NCBI GenBank assembly: GCA_964594985.1
Contig: CAZQNQ010000018.1
Coordinates: 22,548 to 86,547, forward strand
DNA from: an uncultured Bifidobacterium sp.
Lineage (GTDB): Bacteria; Verrucomicrobiota; Verrucomicrobiia; Limisphaerales; JADLHS01
Direction: 5' to 3'
DNA: 64,000 nt
Shown here: positions 11,181 through 64,000 of the stretch, one piece after another
Position numbering within the stretch: the stretch's first letter is position 1
How the letters are laid out: each line of letters begins with the position of its first letter
Translations under genes and position numbers: made by a program
The notes under the pieces: generated by a model
What the model saw: only the letters and a program-made list of their open reading frames with translations
Database searches by the model: none
What the model was told of the DNA's origin: nothing

Positions 11181-12461
11181 TTATTTCCCGGTGCCGCTGG
11201 GGGCCACTTCGCTCGCCAGACAGGCTTCCACCCGCTGCCAGGCGATCGGGGAACTCAAAATGCCGGTGTGATCAAAGTGCAATCCCAGCACGCTGCTGGC
11301 CCGTTTCTGGATCGGGATCAAGAGCTGGCTTTCCAGGCTCACGACGCCGTCGTTCTCATCCGGCAGCCCGAACCCACCCGAACTCTTGTAGCTGAAAATC
11401 AGATCGTAGCGGGTGGATTTCGGCCAGGGCTGGGACACCAAGCTTTGTTGATAAGGACTGCCGACCACCATGTCCTTCCAGGAAGGCGCGGGGTAACGGA
11501 GATGCTCCGCGCCCTTGGCCGCCGCCTCGTGGCCACCCCACGGACTGGAGATGGAAATAAAATGCGTGACGAAAGTCCCCTGCCCTTCGGCCACGCCCGG
11601 CAGACGTTGGATTGCGCCACATGACACCAGTCCGCCCATGCTGTGCGCCACGACGCAGAGGCGCGGGAAGCCGTGGCGTTTTTGCAGAACAGTCATCCCG
11701 GTCGCCAAGGCGTTGGCGGATTTATCCAAGGCAATGCCGCTGGGATAATAGAAGAGCCAGGGTTGATATTTTGTCCGATCAAGCGCGCCGAGCAGCGGCT
11801 TCCAATCCTGGAACGAGCCAGCCATCCCGTACACAAACACCACGGGAATTTTTTCCGGCTGATACGGTTCAAGGAAATAAATGCCCATGCCATTGCGTTG
11901 CAGAAATTCGTACGGCTTCCACAATCCCATCTCGCCGTTCGTGGCGCTGAAACGCGGGTCTTCGAGCTGGATGACTTCACCCAGCGCCACTGGCAGGGCC
12001 TCGCCCAGATCCGGGTTCTCCGCCGGCAGCACAAAACTTTGGCCGCGCGGCAGACCATTCGTCGCGGACAGCCGCAAGCGGAGGCCTTCGCTGCGGGCCT
12101 TGTCGCTCAGCGGCGTGGGGCGGACATTTCGGATGAGGTCCACCGGTTCGCCGCCGTCGTATTGCTGGTTGTCATTCAGATCGGTGAACGCCCCGACCGC
12201 GTAGTCCCGATCCTGTCGCAACAGGAAGACCGCCACTCCTTCAGTCCCCACTGGCTGGAAGCCGATCATTTCATTCGTGCCCCCCACGGCGGTCAAGGCC
12301 AGCGCATACGTCGGCGCGGTGGCGGGCGGCATGGTCACCTGCACGTGAATCACACCGTGCGCCTCGATCTGTTTCACGTTTTGTTTAAGCCCGATCAGCG
12401 CACAGGAGGAAGTCAGCAGACCGCCTGTGAGCAGGACGAAAAGTTGCCGCAATGGTTTCAT
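11181..12461 (-). CDS. Alpha/beta-hydrolase (lipase/esterase-like) lipoprotein
   Basis: Lipobox LLTSSC. IPVVFVYGMAGSFQDWKPLL...YQPWLFYYPSG...LCVVAHSMGGLV (GxSxG nucleophile elbow). Paralogous core to 16307-18223. Confidence 0.7.
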   Translation of the reverse strand: MKPLRQLFVLLTGGLLTSSCALIGLKQNVKQIEAHGVIHVQVTMPPATAPTYALALTAVGGTNEMIGFQPVGTEGVAVFLLRQDRDYAVGAFTDLNDNQQYDGGEPVDLIRNVRPTPLSDKARSEGLRLRLSATNGLPRGQSFVLPAENPDLGEALPVALGEVIQLEDPRFSATNGEMGLWKPYEFLQRNGMGIYFLEPYQPEKIPVVFVYGMAGSFQDWKPLLGALDRTKYQPWLFYYPSGIALDKSANALATGMTVLQKRHGFPRLCVVAHSMGGLVSCGAIQRLPGVAEGQGTFVTHFISISSPWGGHEAAAKGAEHLRYPAPSWKDMVVGSPYQQSLVSQPWPKSTRYDLIFSYKSSGGFGLPDENDGVVSLESQLLIPIQKRASSVLGLHFDHTGILSSPIAWQRVEACLASEVAPSGTGK

Positions 12462-18916: not shown

Positions 18917-19108
18917 TTTGCGACAGGTGTGGATGGTTGGTTTGAAAATAATACTTCCGGGCCGGGCCAATCACGAACCGGCCCATCGGAACAGGCCGCG
19001 CGGCGGGAGGACTTGCCGGCCCCGACCGGTGGGCGGCGACAGGCAAATCACCTGCCGCTGCGCCACCGCCGGTTGATTTAAGCTCAGGAACAATCGGACA
19101 ACGTCAGG

Positions 19109-19792
19109 TTACTTCTTCGGCTCGCCTTCCGCCGGTGTTTCGGGCATTTTCGCCGCCGTGATGGCCGCGACGACCGTGTTCAACTCGGCTTCCAGTTCAT
19201 CCAGGTTTTCCTTCACCTCCACGCCTTCCTTCTTGGTCTTCTTGAAAACCCCCTTCAGCGCGGAAATGCCCTGCACCGTCAGATCGGTGCTGAGCGCCGT
19301 GCGCAAATCCTTCAAGTCCGCCAGATAAATCGGGAACGATTCCTTGGCGTCCTGGGCGGATTTCTTGATGTTGCCAAACGCTTCCTGCAACTTGGCCTTA
19401 CGTTTCCGGGCCAGGTCGCGGATCTTTTCGTTCTGCACCGCGGCGATCTGGGCTTCCCATTGCTGGAAATACTCGGCCCCCTTGGCTTGCATGGTTTCGG
19501 CGTTCTTCTTGGCCGTGTTGCCGGCGTTTTCCACCTGGGTCACGCTCTTGGCAAACGCTTCATATGCCTTGCGCGGGTCCTTGCTCGCCGCCGCCACCAG
19601 ATCATCCATCGCCTTCATCGAGGCGTCCACGGCGATCTTGATGTTCAAGACGTCGGTGCGCAGGGTGTTGATTGATTCGCCGGTCTGGTCGGCTTGTTTG
19701 TAACCAGAGGAACTGGCGCAGCCAGCCATCAACGCCGCGCACACGAGTGCGAGCAGCGGCGTCAACCATTGGGATGTGTTTTGTTTTTTCAT
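19109..19792 (-). CDS. Coiled-coil lipoprotein, DUF2959-like
   Basis: MKKQNTSQWLTPLLALVCAALMAGCASS (ATG 19792). Helical repeats with ...AEYFQQWEAQIAAVQNEKIRDLARKRKAKLQEAF...LADLKDLRTALSTDLT. The family call is tentative. Confidence 0.5.
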   Translation of the reverse strand: MKKQNTSQWLTPLLALVCAALMAGCASSSGYKQADQTGESINTLRTDVLNIKIAVDASMKAMDDLVAAASKDPRKAYEAFAKSVTQVENAGNTAKKNAETMQAKGAEYFQQWEAQIAAVQNEKIRDLARKRKAKLQEAFGNIKKSAQDAKESFPIYLADLKDLRTALSTDLTVQGISALKGVFKKTKKEGVEVKENLDELEAELNTVVAAITAAKMPETPAEGEPKK

Positions 19793-21922: not shown

Positions 21923-22084
21923 TTGGAACAGGCAAACAGAGAAGACCGAGAGTAGCGAAGTCAGATATTCGACGTTGTTACTCCAGTTCCGGAGCCACTG
22001 TTTTGTGGCTGCCGGACTTCGTCTCAAACCGTCCAGGCCCGCATCGTTTCCGGCTCTGTTTTCTCCGTTCCCTCCTGTTCAAAA
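21923..22084 (-). repeat. E-type palindromic repeat, copy with about 100-nt central insert (intergenic)
   Basis: Arms ttGGAACAGGCAAACAGAGAAGACCGAGAG (21923-21952) and GGCTCTGTTTTCTCCGTTCCCTCCTGTTCAAAAG (22052-22084) match the arms of the copies at 62498-62602 and 63011-63099. Confidence 0.5.
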
Positions 22085-24655: not shown

Positions 24656-24717
24656 CCCCTCACCCCGGCCCTCTCCCCATCCGATGGGGAGAGGATGGCC
24701 GCAGGCCGGGTGAGGGG
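24656..24717. repeat. Palindromic 'PSDGER' repeat, copy 2 (intergenic)
   Basis: CCCCTCACCCCGGCCCTCTCCCCATCCGATGGGGAGAGGatggccgcaggCCGGGTGAGGGG. Both the inner and outer stems are intact. Confidence 0.85.
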
Positions 24718-24829
24718 TTTTCTCATCTCAACCCGGAAATTATTTCTGAGAACCAATCTAGGCGTTTCGCTCGACACGAACTGCATGAAGACAGACATTG
24801 GAGACCAAGAAACTTACCGGGCGTCACGG

Positions 24830-40952: not shown

Positions 40953-41030
40953 TTAATCAAGAGGAAACAGACTTTCAGATTTGTTCTCTGTTCCCTCCGT
41001 TTGCTCCGGTTCAATCGCTTCCAGTTTCAT
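40953..41030 (-). repeat. E-type palindromic repeat abutting the HAD stop codon (ATGA junction)
   Basis: Minus strand: ATGAAACTGGAAGCGATTGAACCGGAGCAAACGGAGGGAACAGAGAACAAATCTGAAAGTCTGTTTCCTCTTGATTAA. ATG 41030-41028 overlaps the HAD TGA 41029-41027. Mini-ORF MKLEAIEPEQTEGTENKSESLFPLD. Confidence 0.75.
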
Positions 41031-52812: not shown

Positions 52813-52847
52813 AACTCTTTGCTCCCTTTGCGTTCTTCTGTTTCCAC
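52765..52847 (-). repeat. F-type palindromic repeat at the GxxExxY-1 / DUF58 junction
   Basis: Minus strand: GTGGAAACAGAAGAACGCAAAGGGAGCAAAGAGTTATGAACTCCAGTTCGCCTTCGCTATCTTCGCGTCCTTCTGTTCAAACC. The loop holds TGA (52811-52809) of GxxExxY-1, overlapping ATG (52812-52810) of DUF58. Confidence 0.75.
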
Positions 52848-53309
52848 TTTCGTTCCAAACCCGCCGCCGTCTGCGCCGGGGAGGATGAGCCGATGAATCC
52901 CATCGACAAGACGGGCTTCGTGAAAGTTGATGAGCAGCCCCAGCGGCGCATTGAGGAGCTTCATGTAACTCAGCAACTGCGCTTTGTGGATGGGAAGAAC
53001 TTTTTCCACGGCTTTTAGTTCGAGGATGAGGCAATCGCCCACATACACGTCCAGCTTCAAAGGCTCATCGAAAATGAAGCCTTTGTATTCGACCGGAACA
53101 ATCAGTTGTTGTCGTGCTGGAATATTTTGCAATGACAACTCTCGCATCAAGCACTTCTCGTAAATGGATTCGACCAGGCCCGGCCCTTTCTCGCGATGCA
53201 CTTCAATCGCCGCGCCGATGACCTTGCGGCTCAACTCGTCCGCGCGTTTGAATTTTGGATGCACAGCTTGAACAGAAGAACGCAAAGATCGCGAAGGGGT
53301 CTCATTCAT
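52809..53309 (-). CDS. GxxExxY protein (PD-(D/E)XK nuclease-like fold), copy 1
   Basis: KVIGAAIEVHREKGPGLVESIYEKCLMREL (G-x-x-E-x-x-Y) and D...ILELKAVEKVLPIHKAQLLSYMKLLNAPLGLLINF (E-x-K). ATG 53309. The ORF is also open in-frame up to ATG 53348, which overlaps the moxR stop. Confidence 0.85.
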   Translation of the reverse strand: MNETPSRSLRSSVQAVHPKFKRADELSRKVIGAAIEVHREKGPGLVESIYEKCLMRELSLQNIPARQQLIVPVEYKGFIFDEPLKLDVYVGDCLILELKAVEKVLPIHKAQLLSYMKLLNAPLGLLINFHEARLVDGIHRLILPGADGGGFGTKVETEERKGSKEL

Positions 53310-60429: not shown

Positions 60430-60816
60430 CTATTCCCCCTGCGTGTGCGCCCGTTGCCGCGCGGCCAGATAGCGGTCCATTTCGGCGACATCCTTGAACA
60501 CCGCGACGCCGGGCAGCGACTTGATGATCTCGAAGACCTCCTGGATCTGCGGCTGCATGTGGATGAACGACACCTGCCCGCTGCGCTCCTTCAAAGTTTT
60601 GCGCGTGGTGGAAAACACCCGCAACCCGGCGCTGCTGATGAATTTCAAGTTCGCGAGATCAAAGATCAAGTCCTTCACCCCGCCGCCCAATACCGGCGCC
60701 AGTTGCTTCTCCAGTTCGGGAGCGGTGGCGGTGTCGAGACTGCCGGCGAGTTTGATGGTGACGGCGCCGGCATTCGCCCCGGCGAGATTCTTTTGGATTT
60801 GGATTTCCAGTGGCAT
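60430..60816 (-). CDS. STAS-domain anti-sigma-factor antagonist (SpoIIAA/RsbV-like)
   Basis: VTIKLAGSLDTATAPELEKQLAPVL...LIFDLANLKFISSAGLRVF, with the phosphorylatable Ser context ISSAGL. Confidence 0.85.
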   Translation of the reverse strand: MPLEIQIQKNLAGANAGAVTIKLAGSLDTATAPELEKQLAPVLGGGVKDLIFDLANLKFISSAGLRVFSTTRKTLKERSGQVSFIHMQPQIQEVFEIIKSLPGVAVFKDVAEMDRYLAARQRAHTQGE

Positions 60817-60863: not shown

Positions 60864-62501
60864 CTATTCTCCGTGTGTTTCCAATACAAGCCGCTTCCGC
60901 AGGCGCAGGACATTCGCCCCGGCTTCGCGTCGGTAGGAAATTTCGTCAACATAACGCCGGACCAATCCGATCCCCCAGCCGCCGGGCAGATCATCGTCCT
61001 CGGCCTGGGGCTTGGACGACGTGGCCGCCGTCGGATCAAACTCCGGCCCGCCATCCCGCAACTCAATCGTGAACGCCGCCGCGGTATGTTCGAGAATGAC
61101 TTGAAAAGTCTTCTGCGCCTCGCGCTGCAACGCGTGGTTGACGATGTTGCTGCCGCATTCCTCCAACGCCAGCGCAAGACCGAACAACAATTTTTCCGGC
61201 ACGCCCTGCCCCGCAGCAAACTCCTGCATGGCCTCGACCGCGCGCATGACCTCCTCCGGCGTGGCGTGCAGTTCCAAACTGACACGAGATGGATTTTGAA
61301 CAGGAGGTAACGGAGACAACTGAGACTCGGCAGAGGAATTCTCCGTTCCCTCTGCTTGCTCCTGTTGAATCTTCAGTGTCAAAATCGCAATGTCATCGGA
61401 CTGCGGCGCGCCGTTGGCAAACGCGCGGACTTTTTGCAGCAGGCTCGCGGTGATTTCAGCCGCAGCTCGACCAGCCAACGCGCCAGCCTCCACTAACAGC
61501 CGGTCATTGCCATAACATTCCTCCTGCGGATTGAACGCCTCGCTCACGCCGTCGGAATACAAAATCAAAGTGTCGCCGGCACCCAACGTCAACTCGGTGC
61601 GCTCGAATCCCAGCCCCGGCTCGAAGCCGAGCGCCGTGCCGAGATTCTTCACCGCCCAGCGCGGCGTGCCACCCGCCGGCAACAGCACCGGACGACAATG
61701 CCCGCCGTTGGCAATCACCAGCCGGCCCGACTTCGGCTCGAACACCGCGCACAAAAACGTCACGAACATGCCCGAAGGATTGTCCGCCGCGAGTTCGTCA
61801 TTGAGCCGCGCGAGAATCCGCTCCGGCTCGGCGATGTCCCGCGCGAGCAACCGCGCCAGACTGATTGCGCGCACCATGAACATCGAGGCCGGAATCCCCT
61901 TCCCCGAAACGTCGCCGAGAAAAACCACCAGCCGTTCCGGTCCCGCCGCGCATACGCCGTAAAGATCGCCGCCCACTTCGCGCGCCGGTTCGAGGATCGC
62001 GCCGAAACTCACGCCATACGCCTGTTCAAACGGCGAAAAATCATGCGGCAACATGCCCATCTGAATCTCGCGCGCCACGCGCAGTTCGCTGGCGATCTGC
62101 TCCTTCACCGCATCGCTGTACGCCTTCGCCTTGAGCAACGATCGGACGCGGGCCTTCACTTCGAGCATGTCGAACGGCTTGGTGAGATAATCGTTCGCGC
62201 CCGCCTCGAACCCGCGCGTCTTGTTCTGCACCTCTTCGAGCGACGAGAGAAACATGATCGGCACTTCCGCCGTCTCCGGCATCGCGCGCAGCCGGCGGCA
62301 CACCTCGTAGCCGTCCAGGCCCGGCATCATGATGTCGAGCAACACCAGATCGGGCGGCATCTTCGCGGCGACCTGCAACGCCATCTCGCCATTCAGCGCA
62401 AGACTGAGTTTGTGGTCCGCCTTCAGCCCCTCGACGAGGATATCGAGATTGGCCTTGGCGTCATCCACCAGCAACACGCGGCAATCGGAAAGATTTTTCA
62501 T
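60864..62501 (-). CDS. Response-regulator receiver + PP2C/SpoIIE phosphatase + RsbW-like HATPase (anti-sigma Ser kinase) fusion
   Basis: REC: VLLVDDAKANLDIL...DLVLLDIMMPGLDGYEV. PP2C: GGDLYGV...FLGDVSGKGIPASMFM...LILYSDGVSEA. Linker from an E-type repeat. C-terminal LALEECGSNIVNHA...ELRDGGPEFDP...GGWGIGLVRRYVDE (HATPase_c_2-like). Confidence 0.85.
   Translation of the reverse strand: MKNLSDCRVLLVDDAKANLDILVEGLKADHKLSLALNGEMALQVAAKMPPDLVLLDIMMPGLDGYEVCRRLRAMPETAEVPIMFLSSLEEVQNKTRGFEAGANDYLTKPFDMLEVKARVRSLLKAKAYSDAVKEQIASELRVAREIQMGMLPHDFSPFEQAYGVSFGAILEPAREVGGDLYGVCAAGPERLVVFLGDVSGKGIPASMFMVRAISLARLLARDIAEPERILARLNDELAADNPSGMFVTFLCAVFEPKSGRLVIANGGHCRPVLLPAGGTPRWAVKNLGTALGFEPGLGFERTELTLGAGDTLILYSDGVSEAFNPQEECYGNDRLLVEAGALAGRAAAEITASLLQKVRAFANGAPQSDDIAILTLKIQQEQAEGTENSSAESQLSPLPPVQNPSRVSLELHATPEEVMRAVEAMQEFAAGQGVPEKLLFGLALALEECGSNIVNHALQREAQKTFQVILEHTAAAFTIELRDGGPEFDPTAATSSKPQAEDDDLPGGWGIGLVRRYVDEISYRREAGANVLRLRKRLVLETHGE
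61291..61376 (-). repeat. E-type palindromic repeat translated in-frame as the inter-domain linker
   Basis: Minus strand: CTGAAGATTCAACAGGAGCAAGCAGAGGGAACGGAGAATTCCTCTGCCGAGTCTCAGTTGTCTCCGTTACCTCCTGTTCAAAATCC = LKIQQEQAEGTENSSAESQLSPLPPVQN. Same frame as the mini-ORF of copy 62498-62602. Confidence 0.75.
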
Positions 62502-62602
62502 GGAACAAAAAAATTCTTAACAGGAGACAACAGAGGAAACAGAGGAATAAAAAAGTAAATCTCCATTCCCTCTGTTTCCTCCTGTTCAAATTCTGGTTTC
62601 AT
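62498..62602 (-). repeat. E-type palindromic repeat downstream of GxxExxY-2, containing a 34-codon mini-ORF
   Basis: ATG 62602-62600 lies 1 nt after the GxxExxY-2 TAA (62606-62604). MKPEFEQEETEGMEIYFFIPLFPLLSPVKNFFVP. Its TGA (62500-62498) overlaps ATG (62501-62499) of the REC-PP2C gene. Confidence 0.8.
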
Positions 62603-62603
62603 C

Positions 62604-63005
62604 TTATTGATTTGCTCCGGGCAAAATCAACCGGCTGACCCCATCCGTCACTTTCATTTCAAAGAAGTTGAGCAGGAGTCCGATGGGAGCATTGAGCAGT
62701 TTCATATAACTGAGGAGTTGCGCTTTGTGGATGGGCAGAATCTTCTCCACCGCCTTTACCTCCACCAACACACAACCCTCGACCAACACATCCAATCGCA
62801 ACGGTTCTTCCCGAGTGAAGCCTTTATACTCCACCACTACCTGCTTCTGGCTGACACAACTCAAACCGCGCAAACCAAGTTCCTTTGTGAAACACCATTC
62901 GTAGATGGACTCAATCAGTCCCGGCCCCTTGTCGCGATGCACTTCAATGGCGGCGGCAATGATCGTCTCCGTCAGTCCGGATGCTTTTTGATACAAGGGG
63001 TGCAT
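62604..63005 (-). CDS. GxxExxY protein (PD-(D/E)XK nuclease-like fold), copy 2
   Basis: ATG 63005: MHPLYQKASGLTETIIAAAIEVHRDKGPGLIESIYEWCFTKEL...LDVLVEGCVLVEVKAVEKILPIHKAQLLSYMKLLNAPIGLLLNF. The track start 63086 is a TTG inside the repeat. Confidence 0.85.
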   Translation of the reverse strand: MHPLYQKASGLTETIIAAAIEVHRDKGPGLIESIYEWCFTKELGLRGLSCVSQKQVVVEYKGFTREEPLRLDVLVEGCVLVEVKAVEKILPIHKAQLLSYMKLLNAPIGLLLNFFEMKVTDGVSRLILPGANQ

Positions 63006-63010
63006 GGAAT

Positions 63011-63099
63011 TCTTAACAGGAGGCAACGGAGGAAACAGAGAAATAAAGAAATCTTTTCTCTGTTCTCTCCGTTTCCTCCTGTTCAAGTTCAGGTTTCAT
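63011..63099 (-). repeat. E-type palindromic repeat upstream of GxxExxY-2 (ATGA junction with the hybrid-kinase stop)
   Basis: Minus strand: ATGAAACCTGAACTTGAACAGGAGGAAACGGAGAGAACAGAGAAAAGATTTCTTTATTTCTCTGTTTCCTCCGTTGCCTCCTGTTAAGAA. ATG 63099-63097 overlaps TGA 63098-63096. The mini-ORF MKPELEQEETERTEKRFLYFSVSSVASC stops 7 nt before ATG 63005. Confidence 0.8.
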
Positions 63100-64000
63100 G
63101 TCAATGCCTTCAGTGCTTGCTCCAATCGGATCTGCGCGTCAGCAAACGAATAGCCTTGGACGAGCTTTTCAAACTCCGTCCAGGTGTCATCGGCAAACAA
63201 AGGTTGCAATGCGGTCCGGTTCGTTTCGATGAAATCCGCCGCGCCAGGATCGAACTCTGAAAGCAGCTTCGTCAATTGCGTCGCCGCTTCCCGCGACTTC
63301 ACGGGATCAACCAGCGGCGCGGGAGTGGCCGCAACTGGCTTCGCGGCGGGCGAACCCAGGCTGGCGTTCAGCCCGGCGATCAACGGATCAAGCGCCGCCG
63401 CGACTTGTTGCTTCGCGGACTCCACTTCTGCCGCCGGCGCTTTGCTGCGGATGACTTTTTCCAACGCGGTCGCGACGCCGTGAACGGATTTCGCGCCGAT
63501 GTTGCCCGCCACGCCCTTGAGCGTGTGGGCGAGCCGCTCGGCGAGCGCGACATCACCCGCCGCGAGCGCGGTGGTGATTTCTCCGACCGCCGGACCTTGT
63601 TGCTCGACGAACTGGCGCAGTAGTTTCAAATAGAGTTTCCGATTGCCAGCGACACGGGTCAGGCCGTCGTTCGTATCAAGGCCGGCGATGGAGGGGAGGT
63701 CGTCGCCAGTTCCCCTCACCCCGTCCCTCTCCCCATCGGATGGGGAGAGGGTGTCCGCAGGACGGGTGAGGGGTTTGTAGAACCGTCCGACCGTCTCAAA
63801 CAGGTTGCTTGGATCAATCGGCTTCGAGATGTGATCGTTCATGCCGGCGGCCAGGCAACGTTGCTTCTCCTCCATCGTCGCGTGCGCCGTCATGGCGATG
63901 ATCGGCAACGTGGCGAAGCGCGCGTCGGCACGGAGTCTCGCCGTCGCCTGATGGCCATCCATCACCGGCATCTGCAAATCCATCAGCACCAGATCGAACG
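63096..64000 (-). CDS. C-terminal part of a hybrid sensor kinase: receiver domain end + HPt domain (5' end off window)
   Basis: FDLVLMDLQMPVMDGHQATARLR...IIAMTAHATMEEKQRCLAAGMNDHISKPIDP (REC), then LAERLAHTLKGVAGNIGA (HPt HxxKG). The reading frame stays open to the window edge. Confidence 0.8.
   Translation of the reverse strand, partial: FDLVLMDLQMPVMDGHQATARLRADARFATLPIIAMTAHATMEEKQRCLAAGMNDHISKPIDPSNLFETVGRFYKPLTRPADTLSPSDGERDGVRGTGDDLPSIAGLDTNDGLTRVAGNRKLYLKLLRQFVEQQGPAVGEITTALAAGDVALAERLAHTLKGVAGNIGAKSVHGVATALEKVIRSKAPAAEVESAKQQVAAALDPLIAGLNASLGSPAAKPVAATPAPLVDPVKSREAATQLTKLLSEFDPGAADFIETNRTALQPLFADDTWTEFEKLVQGYSFADAQIRLEQALKALT
63712..63773. repeat. Palindromic 'PSDGER' repeat, copy 3, inside the REC-HPt linker coding sequence
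   Basis: CCCCTCACCCCGTCCCTCTCCCCATCGGATGGGGAGAGGGtgtccgcagGACGGGTGAGGGG. Translated on the minus strand in-frame as KPLTRPADTLSPSDGERDGVRGTG. Confidence 0.85.

Follow-up and report, generated by a model that had tools for sequence, protein, structure and literature searches.

A translated hairpin repeat as the phosphatase-kinase linker of a putative HsbR-type regulator in a Verrucomicrobiota genome

HsbR and the CrsR protein of Shewanella unite a receiver domain (REC), a PP2C phosphatase and a kinase/anti-sigma domain, and both phosphorylate and dephosphorylate a STAS partner (PMC6482189). In Rv1364c of Mycobacterium tuberculosis, a PP2C phosphatase, a GHKL kinase and a STAS domain are fused (PMC7693655). 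Repeats translated within genes are also on record: the Rickettsia palindromic elements (RPE) are in-frame palindromic repeats, or miniature inverted-repeat transposable elements (MITE), located within genes (PMC10969869), and intragenic dimers of repetitive extragenic palindromic (REP) sequences encode 20-30 amino acids and, among GTAG REPs, are most abundant in the verrucomicrobium Opitutus terrae (PMC3733652). The gene described here belongs with both groups. It lies on a 64-kb stretch of contig CAZQNQ010000018.1 (the window) and encodes a response regulator of 545 amino acids with REC, PP2C/SpoIIE and RsbW-type GHKL kinase domains, in which the linker between phosphatase and kinase is an in-frame copy of a 74-nt hairpin repeat, here called E.

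Like HsbR-HsbA of Pseudomonas aeruginosa (PA3346/PA3347) and CrsR-CrsA of Shewanella oneidensis, the window locus encodes three domains in one polypeptide, with a STAS antagonist gene adjacent and an Hpt-containing hybrid kinase, a putative phosphorelay component, upstream. Judged by this likeness of domain layout and neighbours, the locus would represent an HsbR/HsbA-type partner-switching module in a verrucomicrobial (Limisphaerales-like) genome. Unlike HsbR and CrsR, it belongs to the phylum Verrucomicrobiota, most of its close relatives are split into two overlapping genes, and its linker is derived from a repeat. With Rv1364c it shares the opposing PP2C phosphatase and RsbW-type kinase in one protein; Rv1364c has a PAS-type sensor and a fused STAS domain, whereas the window family has REC and, usually, a separate STAS gene. 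An initial annotation of the window, made from the letters alone, had considered the presence of both antagonistic activities in one protein unusual in its own right, which is not the case in view of HsbR and CrsR (PMC6482189) and Rv1364c (PMC7693655). Like RPE and intragenic REPs, E is palindromic, is read in frame, contributes about 20-30 residues at a tolerant site and is missing from orthologues. Unlike RPE and the GTAG REPs, its arms start TTGAACAGGAGG and belong to another sequence family, and a C-terminal tail became an interdomain linker by fusion. With REPIN/RAYT systems (REP doublets forming hairpins and REP-associated tyrosine transposases) and MITE, E has in common two inverted arms of about 30 nt, multiple copies that are mostly intergenic, and a wide distribution in related metagenomes. 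Through known processes, the fused gene thus adds a further case to each of two known classes, translated intragenic REP-like elements and regulators of the HsbR type, and it represents no new kind of system.

The three domains named in the initial annotation were recovered with Pfam (Table 1). Residues D179, D197, D317 and D369/D370, which we take to be the PP2C metal ligands, and residues E448, N452, D483, G485 and G507/G508/G510, presumably the N and G boxes of the kinase, were invariant among 39 aligned orthologues, and the catalytic residues of both phosphatase and kinase appear intact. A PDB sequence search with the regulator returned REC and REC-PP2C relatives only (RssB-like 3eq2) and no three-domain structure. 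NCBIfam contains no HsbR model; the best whole-length match there was to its model for Pseudomonas RssB (residues 6-377), with a score far below cutoff.

In an AlphaFold2 model of the regulator, built with a 39-sequence alignment, the E unit (I378-Q402) fills approximately the whole gap that separates the final strand of PP2C (371-378) from the first strand of the kinase (406-412). Compared with the 30-nt arm consensus TTGAACAGGAGGAAACGGAGAGAACAGAGA, the arms of this coding copy have 3 (61296-61325, plus strand) and 6 (61340-61369, minus strand) mismatches of 30. At a threshold of three mismatches or fewer the arm matched the window four times, against 0.00 matches expected from 100 shuffles. 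Three full hairpins and two solo arms were found in the window, and the coding copy folds more weakly (z = -2.3) than both intergenic copies (Table 1). The initial annotation had called the linker an E repeat at 61291-61376; the identification stands for a narrower unit, 61296-61369. It had also located other copies at gene-gene junctions, as is true of both other full hairpins, and had seen the linker read in the same frame as a mini-ORF (open reading frame) of 34 amino acids (62498-62602, minus strand) that spans the hairpin upstream of the regulator. This mini-ORF is spurious, and the peptides agree in frame (EQEETEGME...LSPVKN in the mini-ORF, QQEQAEGTE...LSPLPPVQN in the regulator).

E shows the traits of an in-frame palindromic repeat: it is multi-copy, it is read through without stop codons while the flanking domains are kept, and it occupies a linker position. 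Because orthologues lack it, having linkers of 10-18 amino acids or repeat-free tails, the repeat is an insertion and not ancestral coding sequence. Intact E hairpins were present on more than 120 metagenome contigs, mostly in intergenic positions. Long stop-to-stop ORFs running through metagenomic hairpins were considered as further intragenic cases and were rejected as GC-rich spurious frames or upstream leaders; no further convincing intragenic case was found in that metagenomic hairpin sample. The family carries no GTAG or CGTC tag at the palindrome end. No transposase was tied to E, no scan of the window for a Y1 transposase having been made. A target-site duplication was not definable, as the ancestral site (AAAGTGAAC / AAGTTGAAC) looks like the end of the repeat itself.

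The repeat-encoded linker was predicted to be disordered. Residues 382-402 had predicted local distance difference test scores (pLDDT) below 50 and no secondary structure in the AlphaFold2 model, in which the flanking domains were confident; structure prediction had been proposed as a check in the initial annotation. The linker would therefore be a disordered stretch at a structurally tolerant interdomain site. An mRNA hairpin under selection was also considered, and was not supported by RNAalifold analysis of seven coding copies, in which the covariation term was positive (+1.78) and only two pairs had double changes.

The state of the genes was then compared among relatives (loci are referred to by L numbers and proteins by P numbers). 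Searches with the whole protein gave thousands of fused proteins, a list that is biased towards fusions, and most of these matches had 520-522 amino acids with a 10-amino-acid linker such as KVNAGACMNL. An unbiased set was obtained with residues 1-377, the REC-PP2C part, as the only query. Among its 119 closest usable relatives (86-93% identity) the genes were split in 101 and fused in 18, and the split REC-PP2C proteins had 376-463 amino acids, mostly 384-392, without a kinase domain. In species-representative genomes, a set of Verrucomicrobiota/Limisphaerales plus some obviously mis-binned metagenome-assembled genomes, 6 of 13 close loci were split. Where the DNA was read, the split kinase was the next gene, its start sharing 4 nt (ATGA or GTGA) with the phosphatase stop, as in the gene calls of L087, L088, L089, L090 and L213. 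The phosphatase and the kinase are thus usually two translationally coupled genes with overlapping stop and start. Four Bacteroidota loci (L054, L057, L068 and L075) also had split genes; in Bacteroidales, PP2C (about 33-43% identity) and HATPase_c_2 (about 26-35%) matches were found in a single frame in which an intervening stop was not checked for. Split and fused states appear to recur at all depths. Parsimony on a neighbour-joining tree of the unbiased set, a tree without support values on which repeat states had been assigned from patterns in the protein tails, placed a split and repeat-free state at the root. In five proteins of 663-691 amino acids (P0032, P0044, P0101, P0102 and P0119) a STAS domain was also fused C-terminally, giving REC-PP2C-kinase-STAS, four domains in an order reminiscent of Rv1364c.

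The repeat was found in genes that are still separate. Eight split proteins end in the repeat peptide (...KVQQEKTEGTE..LSPFPPVQ) followed by 6-9 further amino acids, as in KVQQEKTEGTEKFSSRSPLSPFPPVQESGEAS and its stop codon, and one more ends in a remnant of it. Because the repeat forms the C-terminal phosphatase tail in these eight split relatives, it was probably being translated already when the genes had yet to fuse. In the DNA of L087, L088, L089 and L213 the E unit lies at the site and in the frame of the window copy, inside the upstream (phosphatase) ORF, and a unit of the same length (74 nt) is present at this site in L083, L088, L089 and L213. The tail that follows the repeat in L213 (SGRKGLA and stop) matches a repeat-free tail (SGKEGRA and stop) in the same frame, and the insertion was therefore frame-neutral in the split gene. 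Fused genes without the repeat were also common, among them the 522-amino-acid clade with its 10-amino-acid linker; since such genes are numerous, fusion does not need the repeat.

The length of the junction separates the two states. The junction segment was measured from the Lys codon at the end of PP2C to the Leu in the Leu-Glu-Leu motif conserved in the kinase. In nine split loci it measured 23, 29, 38, 50, 50, 80, 98, 98 and 107 nt, all 2 mod 3. In six fused loci it was 0 mod 3, measuring 24, 81, 93, 93 and 102 nt and, in L214 (a 65-nt repeat unit plus a 33-nt spacer), a multiple of 3. On these comparisons, a net indel that shifts the tail length from 2 mod 3 to 0 mod 3 would fuse the genes, and the reverse would split them. 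In short fused linkers the former start codon survives as an in-frame codon for Met or Val: the fused junction of L002 reads ...TGC ATG AAT CTG GAA..., compared with ...TCA TGA / ATG AAG CTG GAG... in the split L034. The switch is also seen without any repeat, between the split L006 (..EHS and stop / VTL..) and the fused P0066 (..ESRVIL..).

In the repeat-bearing genes, what distinguishes fused from split is located not within the repeat but in the spacer of 18-33 nt that follows it. The split loci L087, L088 and L089 have a post-repeat spacer of 23 nt and the split L213 one of 32 nt, each ending in an overlapping ATGA. The window and L083, both fused, have 18 nt, a net loss of 5 from 23, and the fused L214 has 33 nt, one more than 32, with the old ATG in frame (GGSMTLEL). 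In the class of P0010 the repeat directly abuts Leu-Glu-Leu. The window spacer (Table 1) would be what is left of the former phosphatase tail and of its overlapping stop and start, and also the site of the fusing indel.

These comparisons point to a history that we regard as probable, in which E was inserted into the phosphatase tail of a split HsbR/HsbA-type module, an indel in the spacer downstream later fused the genes, and the linker has remained passive. In the first step, a 74-nt REP/MITE-like E hairpin would have been inserted once and frame-neutrally into the 3' tail of a phosphatase gene not yet joined to the kinase gene, in a frame giving an acidic, proline-rich peptide without stop codons. 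In the second, the 23-nt spacer behind the repeat would have been shortened by a net 5 nt in the window lineage, so that the overlapping stop and start disappeared and the ORFs were joined. In the third, the 25 repeat-encoded residues would act as a passive disordered tether between PP2C and kinase.

A second, unrelated hairpin, R2 (GTAGCCGCCGACGTGAGGAGGCGG...CCGCCTCCTCACGTCGGCGGCTAC), which starts GTAGCC, is present at the orthologous junction in L211 (11139-11204) and L212 (about 1737-1802), where it is translated as GSRRREEAE...HVGGY; further copies lie at 12110-12181 and 5338-5361 of L211. All three R2-bearing proteins (P0009, P0016 and P0099) are fused. The phosphatase tail is clearly a permissive landing site for repeats.

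Several observations weigh against the proposed history. The 23- to 18-nt change in the window lineage is not reconstructable nucleotide by nucleotide, the spacers being too diverged, and some E-bearing lineages may have reverted from fused to split. Repeat-bearing genes are scattered on the neighbour-joining tree, with about 13 state changes, a pattern that many losses would produce, and equally several insertions or recombination. Among the window, L083, L087, L088 and L089, the repeat shows a pairwise identity between lineages (0.62-0.88) similar to that of the gene as a whole (0.77-0.84) and in most comparisons higher than that of third codon positions (0.52-0.66); the linker would then not be drifting freely, and constraint, gene conversion or a younger age is possible. 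Finally, 13 of the 22 genes in the unbiased set with E, an E remnant or R2 were fused, compared with 5 of the 97 without (Fisher p = 3.6e-8), counts that are not phylogenetically independent and come from a set ordered by resemblance to a query that is itself fused and repeat-bearing. This hints that the repeat is perhaps not wholly neutral towards fusion.

The last of these observations would be explained if the repeat were co-opted, that is, if hairpins landing in the coding tail before an overlapping stop and start actively promoted gene fusion, either by making fusions viable as a flexible tether or by raising the local indel rate. The fusion of every R2-bearing gene and the slower evolution of the repeat relative to third codon positions agree with such a role. 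The limits of the counts just given tell against it, as does the lack of covariation or any other mark of selected structure, and because the large 522-amino-acid clade functions with a 10-amino-acid linker and no repeat, a long tether is not required. We consider active promotion of fusion unlikely, if still worth keeping in mind. If true, new interdomain linkers would arise repeatedly from selfish REP-like elements, with E and R2 at the phosphatase/kinase junction and another repeat in the REC-Hpt linker of the neighbouring kinase as instances.

The scatter of E states on the tree would likewise be expected if insertion at the phosphatase tail (AAA GTG/TTG AAC..., resembling the TTGAAC end of the repeat) had been site-directed and recurrent, possibly occurring in the window lineage after the genes had fused. 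The in-frame position of the GTAG-tagged R2 at this site in L211 and L212 favours such targeting, and greater conservation of the repeat than of synonymous sites is what young copies near a master sequence would show. Against recurrence, each of the five full coding copies measures exactly 74 nt, whereas intergenic copies range over 54-84 nt and only 5 of 84 have this length, and all five coding copies start TTCAAC instead of TTGAAC. Closely related proteins also share loop-encoded residues (NSSAESQ vs NSSTQSR), and the coding loops are more alike (mean 0.72) than random intergenic pairs (median 0.58) in slices that included stem bases. As a test of one insertion versus several, loop similarity was set aside as indecisive for that reason, unit length being more useful. 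Because the coding copies share their length and TTCAAC, a single insertion followed by frequent deletion is favoured on this sequence comparison, and E remnants such as those in L001 (KVQPGKTESTTRKTL) and P0003 (KVQSPPAE..) fit it. Gene conversion with other copies is also possible. Repeated insertion is accordingly given a rather low probability.

In the initial annotation, the fusion was ascribed to the repeat itself, through an intergenic junction copy that lost its stop and start signals. Other window copies do lie at gene-gene junctions, two-gene relatives exist, and the fused state is overrepresented among lineages with the repeat. Wherever the DNA of a split repeat-bearing relative was read (L087-L089 and L213), however, the repeat was inside the upstream ORF, with the ATGA 23 or 32 nt further downstream, and the tail frame is the same in split genes whether or not they carry the repeat, so that the insertion caused no frameshift. 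The finding that the initial annotation had named as refuting its view, the same fusion with an unrelated linker, was moreover made: repeat-free fused genes are numerous, the 522-amino-acid clade among them. Of this earlier account, the two-gene state of close relatives and the presence of the repeat beside the junction in the lineage that fused have held up; the repeat never held the stop and start, and origin of the fusion by this route is very improbable. A sequencing or assembly frameshift falsely merging two genes in the window, which the initial annotation had also allowed for and which would need just one small indel in a family that is mostly split, is almost inconceivable, because contigs from at least two independent Logan runs (SRR16797978 and SRR16797999; three contigs read) encode an identical 545-amino-acid protein, fused products of this length with the same 18-nt spacer class form four further 90%-identity clusters (P0001, P0002, P0004 and P0006, from ENA, NCBI and Logan), and L083 and L084 carry the fused gene on contigs of 97 and 30 kb.

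With insertion into a split tail and later fusion through the spacer as the preferred history, the family offers an unusually complete series of natural intermediates, from repeat-free split genes through split genes with a repeat-encoded tail to fused genes with a repeat-encoded linker. The series would document how a selfish hairpin repeat turns into a protein linker, and how a partner-switching phosphatase/kinase pair toggles between two coupled genes and one gene by the length, modulo 3, of a short segment. For annotation, it warns that such regulators are easily mis-called as frameshifted genes or novel fusions, and that peptides like QQEKTEGTE...SPLPPVQ are repeat-derived. Little is added for function, the HsbR/CrsR architecture being known and translated intragenic REPs being already documented in Verrucomicrobia.

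Table 1. Positions of the regulator, its domains, the E repeats and the neighbouring genes in the window.
Feature	Position	Strand	Evidence
E hairpin repeat, 74 nt, translated in frame as residues 378-402 (IQQEQAEGTENSSAESQLSPLPPVQ)	61296-61369	minus	Arm matches, fold
Spacer between repeat and kinase Leu-Glu-Leu, 18 nt, residues 403-408 (NPSRVS)	61278-61295	minus	Homologous spacers compared
Intact intergenic E hairpin between GxxExxY gene and regulator gene	62516-62589		z = -5.7
Intact intergenic E hairpin between hybrid kinase stop and GxxExxY start	63012-63086		z = -7.2
Solo E arms	22053-22082 and 40985-41014		Consensus match
Response regulator gene, REC + PP2C/SpoIIE + RsbW-type GHKL kinase, 545 aa	60864-62501	minus	ORF and Pfam
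REC domain, residues 9-119	62145-62477	minus	Pfam PF00072 Response_reg, E = 2.3e-24
PP2C/SpoIIE phosphatase domain, residues 188-378	61368-61940	minus	Pfam PF07228, E = 8.1e-48
HATPase_c_2 domain (RsbW-type serine kinase/anti-sigma), residues 412-536	60894-61268	minus	Pfam PF13581, E = 2.4e-25
STAS anti-sigma-factor antagonist gene, presumed substrate/partner (HsbA/CrsA-like)	60430-60816	minus	Pfam STAS; NCBIfam TIGR00377 above cutoff
Hybrid histidine kinase, C-terminal part, REC + Hpt	63096-63989	minus	Pfam Response_reg and Hpt
GxxExxY/PDDEXK_3 gene between hybrid kinase and regulator, E hairpins either side	62604-63005	minus	Pfam; NCBIfam TIGR04256

The surroundings of the regulator are conserved among relatives. 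A STAS gene follows the regulator gene in all loci read far enough downstream, and two tandem STAS genes are present in L087, L090 and L211. Full-length orthologues of the hybrid kinase, which is represented in the window by its C-terminal part, were found in L083, L211 and L213, and the order hybrid kinase (with Hpt), regulator, STAS is repeated in these three loci; it corresponds to that of the HptB-HsbR-HsbA pathway. From gene adjacency, the hybrid kinase is the likely phosphodonor for the regulator's REC domain.

The GxxExxY gene bracketed by E hairpins recurs in L090 (634-1201) and L211 (9354-9985), and together with the flanking arms it looks like a small mobile cassette. A paralogue, 62% identical, lies at 52869-53252 of the window and is flanked by inverted arms of a variant repeat (TTGAACAGAAGAACGCAAAG..., 52817-53296). 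The GxxExxY/PDDEXK_3 product was considered as the nuclease mobilising E and was rejected as a general link, since only 2 of 84 randomly sampled metagenomic hairpins lay within 400 nt of such a gene. In L083 (9564-9986) inverted E arms enclose about 360 nt with copies of a 'CCCTCTCCCC...GGGGAGAGGG' repeat in place of GxxExxY, and E arms can therefore flank variable cargo. L083 also carries a Y1_Tnp gene (RAYT-like tyrosine transposase) at 18919-19374, 7 kb downstream of the regulator.

A different palindromic repeat (63712-63776) is read in frame in the REC-Hpt linker of the hybrid kinase, where it encodes PLTRPADTLSPSDGERDGVRG and provides this signalling cluster with a second interdomain linker made of a translated repeat; other copies are located at 2582-2646 and 24656-24720 of the window. 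This linker repeat is present in the L211 orthologue, and the linkers of L083, L213 and L085 are unrelated to it.

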